A program made the position numbers and the translations under genes. The notes below the pieces were generated by a model that had not been told where the DNA came from, did no database searches, and was given only the letters and a program-made list of their open reading frames with translations. Source: a virus (Duplodnaviria; Heunggongvirae; Uroviricota; Caudoviricetes). Taken from it: a DNA stretch of 4,976 bases. Positions within the stretch are counted from its first letter, which is position 1. Each line of letters opens with the position of its first letter. Location of the stretch: the IMG/VR virus record IMGVR_UViG_2648501400_000010. One strand, given 5' to 3'. Positions 1-4,577 of this stretch are shown here, piece after piece.

Positions 1-27
1 CTCTTCTTGTGTAAAAACTTTTGCCAC
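1..27 (-). CDS. 5-prime fragment of the next gene in the leftward operon (9 codons, VAKVFTQEE, runs off the window edge); by position possibly a helicase-loader (P/DnaC-like) gene
   Basis: Strong Shine-Dalgarno AGGAGG (complement of 32-37) with a 4-nt spacer to GTG (complement of 25-27), about 40 nt downstream of the stop of the replication-initiator-like gene. Reading frame stays open to position 1. Too short to assign a product. Confidence 0.3.
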
Positions 28-67: not shown

Positions 68-1030
68 TTACCCCCTGAAGCCCGGCGGAATTTCAGTGTC
101 CGGTTCAGAAATGTGATTCACGCAACGCTGCGCAGGCGAACGCCCCAGGCGGATAACCAGTTCATCCCATTTTTCCCGGAGTTTTGCCGGACTCATGATG
201 TTTTTTACCCAGAACGAATCCCGCTGGAGACGCCCAAACATTTCACAAATTTGTCTGTGAGTTCTGCCATCCAGCATCCGCATTGTGCGAACGTCATTGG
301 CCCATGCTGTCCAGTTGGGTTCTTTCGGTCTAGTGATCTCGCCATCATCGCTGGCCGCCTGCTCGTAAAGACTCACGATTCGTCCCCAGATCCACTGTGC
401 GCACACCAAATCTTCCTGACTTCCCCACTGGCGTTTTTTCGCACTGAACACAACCGCGTCAGGGTGTCGGGTTAAAAAATCCTGTTCAGCCGTCTGCGGG
501 TCCGGTTGCGAAGCGTCCGGACAAGAAGATCTTTTATCTGACGGATCAGGTTTTAATACTGACGGATCGGGGTCAATCATCGCCCCCCTAATCGGCAGTT
601 TTTTATCAACAGTTGATCCATCAAAATTTGACGGGTCAACCGTTGAGGGGTCAATATTTGACGGGTCAACTGTTAACGGGTCATTTTTTGCCGGGCTAAT
701 TTTTCTTTTTGGTTTATATGACTCACGCGCCGCCGCCGCAGCTGCTTCGAGTTTTTCCACATTAAGCCGATAGATATTGCTTACATTACGCCCACCGACC
801 TTACGCTCTTCCTTCGTCAGCCAGCCCTCTTTCGCCAGTTCTGCAATAGCCGATTTCACTGTGGATTCACTTCTTGCACCGATCTGACGCCGGATAGTTT
901 CAATGGCAGGCCATGACACGCCCTCGTCATTGCTGTAGTCTGCAAGACGGGCCATAACCGCCACCCTGGATAAGATCATGCCGGTGAAGGCGCACCCTTC
1001 CCAGACAAGACCATGAAGCTTGCTGCTCAT
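68..1030 (-). CDS. Phage replication initiation protein, lambda O-like role (N-terminal winged-helix/HTH domain, repetitive linker, C-terminal domain)
   Basis: Long ORF in the track (68..1045, which starts at GTG). I prefer ATG at 1028-1030 (MSSKLHGLVW...) preceded by a G-rich SD. The N-terminal region (ILSRVAVMARLADYSNDEGVSWPAIETIRRQIGARSESTVKSAIAELAKEGWL) looks like the HTH domain typical of phage replication initiators. The gene sits where O (ydaU in Rac) sits, after the cro-like and cII-position genes. The linker encodes DPS(N/T)(V/I/F) pentapeptide repeats that coincide with the DNA iterons. Confidence 0.8.
   Translation of the reverse strand: MSSKLHGLVWEGCAFTGMILSRVAVMARLADYSNDEGVSWPAIETIRRQIGARSESTVKSAIAELAKEGWLTKEERKVGGRNVSNIYRLNVEKLEAAAAAARESYKPKRKISPAKNDPLTVDPSNIDPSTVDPSNFDGSTVDKKLPIRGAMIDPDPSVLKPDPSDKRSSCPDASQPDPQTAEQDFLTRHPDAVVFSAKKRQWGSQEDLVCAQWIWGRIVSLYEQAASDDGEITRPKEPNWTAWANDVRTMRMLDGRTHRQICEMFGRLQRDSFWVKNIMSPAKLREKWDELVIRLGRSPAQRCVNHISEPDTEIPPGFRG
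615..704. repeat. Phased 15-bp iteron array (consensus GACGGGTCAAnnTTT), candidate phage origin of replication embedded in the initiator gene
   Basis: Five tandem in-phase units at 630, 645, 660, 675 and 690 (gacgggtcaaccgtt / gaggggtcaatattt / gacgggtcaactgtt / aacgggtcatttttt / gccgggctaattttt). A degenerate in-phase unit lies at 615-629, and further copies at 540-554 (gacggatcaggtttt, in phase) and 567-581. Each unit ends in a T-tract, and an AT-rich stretch follows at 705-722. Confidence 0.7.
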
Positions 1031-2362: not shown

Positions 2363-2554
2363 ATGAGTACAGCCCTTTCCCCGATAATTTCTGAATTTGA
2401 AACAGTCGAACAAGAAAACAGCTATAACGAATGGTTGCGAACCAAAGTGGCAGCAAGCCTCTCAGATCCCCGTCCTGCAATTCCACATGACGAAGTAATG
2501 GCTGAAATGGAAAACCTTATTGCTCAATTAGCTGCAACGAACAGGAGTGAGTAA
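2363..2554 (+). CDS. paaA: Small antitoxin of a ParE-type toxin-antitoxin module (PaaA-like, 63 aa)
   Basis: 63-aa ORF with SD AGGAGG at 2350-2355 and a 7-nt spacer. Its stop TAA overlaps the start of the downstream ParE-like gene (TAATG at 2552-2556). Size and position between a regulator and ParE match the PaaA antitoxins. Acidic, low-complexity and probably disordered. Confidence 0.7.
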   Translation: MSTALSPIISEFETVEQENSYNEWLRTKVAASLSDPRPAIPHDEVMAEMENLIAQLAATNRSE

Positions 2555-2844
2555 TGCTGCCCATTTTATGGCTACCTTCTGCACGTGATGATTTACGTCA
2601 GATCGTAGCCTATATTGCTAAGGAAAACCCTCCCGCTGCACGTAGACTAAAAATACGCATTGAAACATCAGTTTTGTCACTTACTGAACACCCTTATCTG
2701 TACCCACCGAGCGAAAGAGTTCCAAGTCTTCGTGAGATAGTGACTCATCCTAACTACATAATACTTTACCGAGTAACAGCATCTAACATCGAGATCGTAA
2801 ATGTAGTTCACTCACGAAGACAGTATCCAAACAAAACCTGTTAA
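2554..2844 (+). CDS. parE: ParE/RelE-superfamily toxin (ParE-like, gyrase-poisoning class)
   Basis: 96-aa ORF (MLPILWLPSARDDLRQIVAYIAKENPPAARRLKIRIETSVLSL...REIVTHPNYIILYRV...IEIVNVVHSRR) with the sequence pattern characteristic of ParE toxins (W near the N-terminus, DL..I..YIA, R.L...I, PY.G/P, REL/REI, Y.I.YRV, IEI..V.H.RR). Translationally coupled to the upstream small ORF. Confidence 0.85.
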   Translation: MLPILWLPSARDDLRQIVAYIAKENPPAARRLKIRIETSVLSLTEHPYLYPPSERVPSLREIVTHPNYIILYRVTASNIEIVNVVHSRRQYPNKTC

Positions 2845-4335: not shown

Positions 4336-4577
4336 CCCTCTGTTATCAATTTTCTGGTGACGTTTGGCGGTATCAGTTTTACTCCGTGACTGCTCTGCCG
4401 CCCTTTTTAAAGTGAATTTTGTGATGTGGTGAATGCGGCTGAGCGCACGCGGAACAGTTAAAACCAAAAACAGTGTTATGGGTGGATTCTCTGTATCCGG
4501 CGTTAATTGTTAACTGGTTAACGTCACCTGGAGGCACCAGGCACCGCATCACAAAATTCATTGTTGAGGACGCGATA

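Follow-up and report, generated by a model that had tools for sequence, protein, structure and literature searches.

What does a tandem repeat in the coding sequence of a phage replication initiator serve, the protein or the DNA? This question is raised by a DNA stretch of 4,976 nucleotides (hereafter the window) from the Caudoviricetes record IMGVR_UViG_2648501400_000010, which is the early region of a lambdoid prophage. In the middle of its lambda-O-like replication-initiator gene lies an array of 15-bp units that encodes a DPS(N/T)(V/I/F) pentapeptide repeat. A first inspection of the letters without database searches (hereafter the sequence-only reading) had proposed this array as a candidate prophage origin. 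Our comparison of related initiator genes demonstrates that the array is conserved as DNA rather than as peptide. We conclude that it is probably the initiator-binding (iteron) part of the prophage replication origin, located as in phage lambda within its own initiator gene, where the linker is encoded. The pentapeptide repeat would then be a by-product of the DNA repeat, which lies in a linker predicted to be disordered and has by chance a period divisible by three. The coordinates of all features discussed are given in Table 1.

The repeated motif is the palindrome TCAAnnnTTGA. Exact copies start at 606, 621, 636 and 651, followed by a copy with one mismatch at 666 and degenerate copies at 681 and 696. 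Against an expectation of 0.20, there are thus four exact copies, a number that none of 200 dinucleotide shuffles attained; when up to one mismatch is allowed, 5 of the 6 matches in the whole window fall within the array. A repeat search found five in-register copies with 15-bp spacing. Over positions 606-704, the tandem-repeat program TRF reported a period of 15 (71% matches) and a period of 30 (82-84%), and the 30-bp sub-period consists of TCAACnGTTGA alternating with TCAA(A/T)(A/T)TTTGA. The sequence-only reading had listed five 15-bp units, 630-644 (GACGGGTCAACCGTT), 645-659 (GAGGGGTCAATATTT), 660-674 (GACGGGTCAACTGTT), 675-689 (AACGGGTCATTTTTT) and 690-704 (GCCGGGCTAATTTTT), with degenerate copies in phase (615-629 and 540-554) and a partial copy out of phase (about 567-581). 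We found all of them, and an additional good unit (606-616) to the left of the five. The pentapeptide repeat can be read directly from the translation of the minus strand, which is the coding strand, as ...NDPLT VDPSN IDPST VDPSN FDGST VDK, a series of D-P-S-(N/T)-(V/I/F) repeats.

We then asked whether selection acts on the DNA or on the peptide. A search of viral contigs returned 80 near-identical copies (99-100%), which are of no use for divergence tests, and a search of genome contigs gave 11 related loci only. Diverse lineages were gathered via homologous proteins and the contigs that encode them. The 13 lineages compared come from E. coli, Salmonella, Erwinia, Klebsiella, Shigella and Shiga toxin (Stx) phages and from metagenomic contigs, and their N-terminal domains (N-domains) are about 33-79% identical to that of the window. 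An array with 15-bp units and a pentapeptide repeat is located at the same place in all 13. The peptide varies from one lineage to another (DPSNI, DPSKI, SKFEG, SKSDA, SDSDP, SKSEP and others), with residues drifting among P/A/G/T/Q/R, D/E, N/K/T/D and V/I/F/S, whereas the half-sites TCA...TGA are fixed. A logo of the unit, in which lineages were weighted equally, reads T C A (A/G) A n n (T/C) T G A n n C n, with 1.6-1.8 bits at TCA, 1.2-1.3 bits at TGA and near zero at the last four bases. What is conserved is an inverted repeat, TCA being the reverse complement of TGA. According to the sequence-only reading, a peptide repeat conserved in homologues with synonymous scrambling of the DNA repeat would have indicated protein-level selection; no such scrambling was seen in these lineages.

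The selection is visible at wobble positions, for which we derived expected frequencies from the genes' own codon usage. Within the half-sites, codon 1 has A in the wobble position at a frequency of 97% (14% expected) and codon 3 has T there at a frequency of 93% (30% expected), both values being above expectation in 13 of 13 lineages; T is kept at the end of codon 3 whether the residue is F, I, V, S, N or T. The wobble bases of the spacer are neutral, with 42% observed versus 33% expected at codon 4 (above expectation in 8 of 13 lineages) and 28% versus 30% at codon 5 (6 of 13). Serine is encoded within the arrays by TCA (55 codons), TCT (20), TCG (2) and AGC (1), and outside the arrays by AGC (101), AGT (39), TCA (38), TCG (35), TCC (31) and TCT (28). 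In the N-domain, codon identity at conserved four- and six-fold degenerate residues is only 33%. Synonymous sites are therefore saturated, and the conservation of the array does not reflect shared ancestry. When the peptides were recoded synonymously in simulations using the genes' codon usage, nearly all lineages showed fewer 4+3+4 palindromes than the real arrays (P between 0.001 and 0.16 for individual lineages) and a period-15 identity below that observed (P < 0.001 in most lineages). The half-site itself differs by sublineage (TCAAA.TTTGA vs TCAGA.TCTGA). Positions 4 and 8 are partly compensatory (AT 25, GC 8, AC 13, GT 3), a covariation that is weakly significant (Fisher p = 0.04) among units that are not independent.

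These data bear on the possibility that slippage has produced a low-complexity pentapeptide linker, maintained at the protein level, whose DNA has no function. Such an origin of the repeat would account for a period that is a multiple of three, for its location in a disordered linker and for changes in copy number by steps of five residues. However, the half-site wobble bases are 93-97% conserved where other synonymous sites are saturated and the amino acids change. Moreover, recoded peptides rarely recreate the palindromes, and the sister types of initiator described below carry non-triplet repeats at this place. The codon comparison between lineages contradicts a purely peptidic repeat, and we consider it the least probable of the explanations. 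The locus appears instead as a clean case of dual coding, in which an array of DNA sites dictates a peptide repeat in a disordered linker.

The array also has the potential to form a large secondary structure. Segments 608-640 and 642-674 are inverted repeats with 79% complementarity, giving a 67 nt imperfect palindrome, and the single strand of the array folds to -16.9 kcal/mol (z = -5.45), a stability matched by 0 of 200 shuffles. The array could then act as a nucleic-acid structure, either a cruciform, or a single-stranded DNA hairpin serving as a signal for primosome assembly or single-strand initiation, or an mRNA structure. The DnaT-like tail of the initiator (see below) points in the same direction, as it hints at the PriA primosome, which recognises hairpins. 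Yet a long hairpin follows automatically from short palindromes placed head to tail. The number and parity of units differ among lineages, so that the 11-bp cores are conserved and the large palindrome is not, and conservation falls on the half-sites instead of the pairing partners of distant units. A structural role thus seems highly improbable to us, and we favour the reading of the array as a series of protein-binding sites.

The spacing of these sites imposes a particular geometry. Fifteen bp correspond to about 1.4 helical turns, and adjacent units therefore lie on nearly opposite faces of the DNA, out of helical phase. Like units and A/T tracts come roughly into register at the 30-bp sub-period alone, which spans about 2.9 turns. 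The intrinsic bending that the sequence-only reading predicted from phased T-tracts thus has only a partial basis, at the 30-bp period and not between 15-bp neighbours.

The organization of the initiator gene provides the second line of evidence. Over its full length, the protein matches PHROG 391, 'replication initiation O-like' (E 2e-115), and a longer GTG open reading frame of the gene extends to 1045. Pfam recognizes only an N-terminal HTH_36 domain. By BLASTP, residues 182-300 of the initiator align with residues 171-277 of lambda O (39% identity, E 5e-26), with no similarity to lambda O detected in the N-terminal half. The AlphaFold2 model from which the confidence values (predicted local distance difference test, pLDDT) of Table 1 are taken was built on an alignment of 23 sequences. 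Foldseek matched the N-domain weakly to generic winged-helix proteins, i.e. dimeric DNA binders of the MarR/ArsR/PadR type (E ~2e-3). A sequence search of the PDB found no solved relative of the N- or C-terminal domain (C-domain), and matched the DnaT tail only. Initiators combining HTH_36 and O-like domains are at present usually annotated just as 'helix-turn-helix domain-containing protein' or 'primosomal protein'.

It is established (PMC7466680) that the origin of lambdoid phages, made up of iterons and an AT-rich tract, occupies the middle of gene O. The lambda iterons are annotated in J02459 at residues 117-145 of O, and the array of the window encodes residues 114-143 of the initiator, both directly preceding the shared C-domain. 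The homology of this domain to lambda O, the equivalent position of the repeats and their conservation at the DNA level all argue for the candidate origin put forward by the sequence-only reading.

The array is furthermore inherited together with the N-domain. Proteins such as P0003, and likewise P0046, P0071 and P0106, are 96-100% identical to the initiator of the window over the N-domain, the array and the next 30 residues, and then continue into unrelated C-domains. A pair of GATC sites located beyond the array travels with the N-domain and the array across these four C-domain exchanges. Since N-domain and array are kept while C-domains are swapped, the N-domain and the repeats form one inherited module. 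Within this module, close E. coli variants of the protein are 320, 315, 310 or 305 residues long, a 5-residue length polymorphism that results from the gain or loss of whole units.

The reciprocal situation was encountered in loci from E. albertii (L008), Citrobacter (L014) and Rahnella (L015), which have other N-domains and the same lambda-O-like C-domain (48-60% identity for L008 and L014, 41% for L015). As in the window, palindromic repeats are present in the same linker, in front of the same C-domain. In contrast to the window, their sequence is unrelated and their period of 23-24 bp is out of frame. Because this period is not a multiple of three, these repeats can only be DNA repeats. They are presumably the iterons of these initiators, and they resemble classical lambdoid iterons.

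We examined the flanks of the array for other potential origin elements. The AT-rich stretch that the sequence-only reading had placed at 705-722 is present (72% AT), but flanks the array on its N-terminal side, opposite to that of lambda, and is not conserved elsewhere: other lineages have an AT content of 40-68% in the 40 nt upstream of their arrays. In most lineages the array is itself the AT-richest segment (57-67% versus 45-50% for the gene). The segment downstream of the array, 44-62% AT, carries the conserved GATC pair. Just before this pair, at the site of the isolated degenerate unit of the window, an intact TCAAnnnTTGA is found in most other lineages, for instance in L098 (TCAACCATTGAC), L006 (TCAATGGTTGAC), L100 (TCAACCGTTGAG) and L101 (TCAATGGTTGAA).

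In the window, the GATC cluster is composed of two direct repeats GATCCGTCAG (minus strand) flanking a short A/T-rich spacer. In 18 of 19 lineages, a GATCC(G/A) pair follows the array at a distance of 33-105 nt, which is 33-72 nt for most lineages, and a pair or trio of GATC (Dam) sites is conserved at the same place in L002-L007 and L098-L110. The aspartate codon at the GATC pair is GAT in 38 of 38 cases, compared with 53% in the folded domains. In many relatives, a Dam methylase gene is located two genes downstream of the initiator gene. Enterobacterial origins, oriC and P1 oriR among them, typically have Dam sites clustered next to the sites of the initiator. Segment 528-568 is a candidate for a Dam-sensitive or unwinding part of the origin, and we regard it as a more likely partner of the iterons than the AT-rich stretch 697-721. 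DnaA boxes gave no signal: with at most one mismatch, the window contains five against 4.4 expected. Given this lack of excess, the one-mismatch box that overlaps the first unit, TTATCAACA at 603-611, is probably there by chance.

These features suggest the following scheme. Rightward early transcription (leftward in the coordinates of the window) would lead to synthesis of the 320-residue initiator. Its N-terminal winged helix would bind the TCAAnnnTTGA palindromes at 606-691, probably as one dimer per palindrome, and the bound initiator would form an O-some-like nucleoprotein complex. The duplex would open beside the array, either in the GATC-bearing segment 528-568 or in the AT-rich stretch 697-721, and the lambda-O-like C-domain and the C-terminal tail would recruit the host helicase.

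Several observations weigh against an origin at this site. The half-sites are short (3-5 bp). The units of an array are related by duplication, so that statistics within an array are not independent and the argument rests on the comparison between lineages. Close E. coli variants differ in unit number (about 2-6), which indicates that this number is weakly constrained or that some copies reside in decaying prophages. Across lineages there is no conserved, strongly AT-rich unwinding element beside the array, the 84% AT stretch of the window being lineage-specific and on the side opposite from lambda. In addition, the initiator gene of this prophage is not followed by a P or DnaC-like gene. Finally, literature searches on oriJ/Rac, lambdoid iterons, replication regions of non-lambdoid Stx phages and the SfII/SfIV origins found neither a paper on binding or replication in this initiator family nor an account of this iteron type. 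The phage records that we examined have no origin annotated at the site of the array.

The variable copy number and the missing AT-rich element could also be explained if the sites, although selected at the DNA level, bound the initiator or another protein for autoregulation, as a transcriptional roadblock or in copy control, and the true origin lay in another part of the prophage. Our tests indeed reveal DNA-level constraint and palindromic symmetry, not replication. On the other hand, the array occupies in a lambda-O homologue the position of the lambda iterons, and sister N-domain types carry lambda-like 23-24-bp iterons at that same place. The array is also co-inherited with the N-domain over C-domain swaps, a conserved GATC pair lies beyond it as in the Dam-regulated origins oriC and P1 oriR, and the promoter region of the window contains no second copy of the motif. 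We thus regard a function other than replication as unlikely. If the array is part of the origin, this places the origin of a replication module that is very common in prophages and temperate phages of E. coli, Shigella and Klebsiella, and supplies a precise, testable candidate binding motif, TCA(A/G)A-N-(T/C)TGA, at 15-bp spacing. In practice, it marks a short fragment for origin tests or recoding.

The element is a candidate for a lambdoid-type origin with a new type of iteron, leaving the organizational concept of lambdoid origins unchanged. As in ori-lambda, the repeats occupy the central part of the initiator gene, where the linker is encoded, with almost the same residue numbers; each unit has dyad symmetry, and the C-domain is homologous. 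In both systems unit number varies among relatives (4 in lambda and 6 in Stx phages, about 2-6 here), N-domain and repeats constitute one specificity module, and a lambda-P gene follows in some relatives. The differences concern first the repeats, which are here 15-bp head-to-tail units (an 11-bp core and a 4-bp spacer) with a period that is a multiple of three and gives rise to a pentapeptide repeat, whereas lambda has 18-19-bp iterons spaced 20-24 bp, about two helical turns. The N-domain is of the HTH_36 type, with no detectable sequence similarity to that of lambda O. A conserved GATC pair stands in place of the 40-bp AT-rich tract that follows the lambda iterons. Lastly, the initiator gene of this prophage is not followed by P, and its product carries a DnaT-like tail at the C-terminus.

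Other origins are more distant. At iteron-type origins of plasmids and phage-plasmids with Dam sites (P1 oriR, oriC 13-mers), a winged-helix initiator acts on tandem repeats with clustered GATC sites alongside. These origins are located outside the initiator coding sequence and have 19-22-bp direct repeats and DnaA boxes. They share with the window the tandem repeats, a predicted winged-helix initiator and GATC sites beside the repeats; unlike them, the array of the window lies within the initiator gene and is devoid of a significant DnaA box. In the Rac prophage of E. coli K-12 (ydaU-ydaV/oriJ), as in the window, racR-ydaS-ydaT-like immunity genes precede the replication gene. The replication genes themselves differ: K-12 has a DUF1376 YdaU followed by a DnaC-like YdaV, and the window an HTH_36 protein with a lambda-O C-domain followed by a DUF977 protein. 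The gene of the window is not a relative of ydaU, K-12 YdaU being DUF1376 and the N-domain of the initiator HTH_36, and we dropped the comparison with ydaU regions suggested by the sequence-only reading.

How could the helicase be recruited in a prophage with no P gene at this position? The last 20 residues of the initiator (QRCVNHISEPDTEIPPGFRG) have a close counterpart in the C-terminal tail of E. coli DnaT (RDVNTVSEPDSQIPPGFRG; phmmer E 8.5e-5; PDB chains 2ru8_A, 6aep_A and 9zbt_D). The end of the protein correlates with the nature of the downstream gene. Lambda-P never follows initiators ending in ...GFRG, ...GFRS or ...GWQG in the loci examined (window/L001, L105, L100, L101, SKA5, SfII, phiNP and LLS), whereas P (PF06992) follows initiators ending in ...W(E/R)(N/D/T)(T/V)L in L098, L099, L103 and L104. 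In a recently reported structure, the C-terminal domain of DnaT docks on PriA (PMC13377028). Mimicry of the DnaT tail may replace P for helicase recruitment, and the initiator may use the host PriA/PriB/DnaT-DnaB/DnaC proteins instead of a phage P protein. As for the array, its inverted TCA/TGA half-sites occur every 7-8 bp in contiguous 15-bp units and could be coated by the initiator on alternating faces of the DNA, not as separated dimers. The conserved GATC pair, with the phage dam gene found two genes downstream in many relatives, could add methylation control. Combining these parts gives a P-independent lambdoid origin, at which the initiator would coat the DNA as a continuous array and hijack the host restart machinery by its DnaT-like tail. 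We propose this combination only tentatively and rate it as rather doubtful.

Table 1. Coordinates of the features described in the text. Positions refer to the window unless a locus is named.
Feature	Coordinates	Strand	Remarks
Replication-initiator gene, lambda-O-like, 320 aa	68..1030	-	RefSeq start as in WP_000095671.1
N-terminal winged helix	aa 1-104 (window 719-1030)	-	Pfam HTH_36; AlphaFold2 pLDDT 70-87
Predicted disordered linker	aa 105-180 (window 491-718)	-	AlphaFold2 pLDDT ~30 at aa 107-176
Lambda-O-like helical C-domain	aa 181-297 (window 140-490)	-	AlphaFold2 pLDDT ~90
DnaT-like tail	aa 301-320 (window 71-130)	-	Sequence match to DnaT C-terminus
Probable iteron array, TCAAnnnTTGA palindromes	606..691	.	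Exactly 15-bp spacing; encodes aa 114-143
Further degenerate unit beyond array	696-706
AT-rich stretch	697..721	.	84% AT; AT-richest 25-mer of the gene; N-terminal side of array; lineage-specific
Isolated degenerate unit	569..583	-	GCGATGATTGACCCC
GATC cluster	528..568	.	GATC starts at 528, 544 and 565; 527-568 is 62% AT
One-mismatch DnaA box	603-611	+	TTATCAACA; overlaps first unit
E. albertii repeats	L008 1713-1828		CATCGGGTCAAAATGACCCGATG x5; 23-24-bp spacing; palindromic
Citrobacter repeats	L014 1487-1644		23-bp series
Rahnella repeats	L015 1342-1427		GTGTCACTACCGTAGTGACA x3; 23-24 bp
DUF977 gene after initiator	window 1-27 and leftwards (L001 5605-6027)		Not a P-, DnaC- or DnaB-type loader
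YdaT-like protein	1053-1478	-
YdaS/Cro-like protein	1462-1737	-
RacR-like repressor	1845-2345	+
relB/relE (ParE-family) toxin-antitoxin pair	2363-2844	+	Directly 3' of repressor gene, within immunity region
DicF antisense small RNA	4352-4403	+	Rfam RF00039, 76.7 bits, E 2.8e-16; upstream of prophage dicB/ydfD side

The remaining genes of the window place the array in its prophage context. An Rfam scan returned DicF as its sole match, distant from the array, and a scan of positions 1-2000 for promoters and terminators located none within the initiator gene. Identity to the window is 95-98% for the closest complete E. coli genomes, and in strain TUM13773 the prophage adjoins ompW. In other relatives, genes for PerC-like/YfdN proteins or methyltransferases occupy the slot after the initiator gene. 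Viable temperate phages carry the initiator module with its array as well, among them SfII, SfIV, phiNP, LLS, SKA5 and Klebsiella phages.

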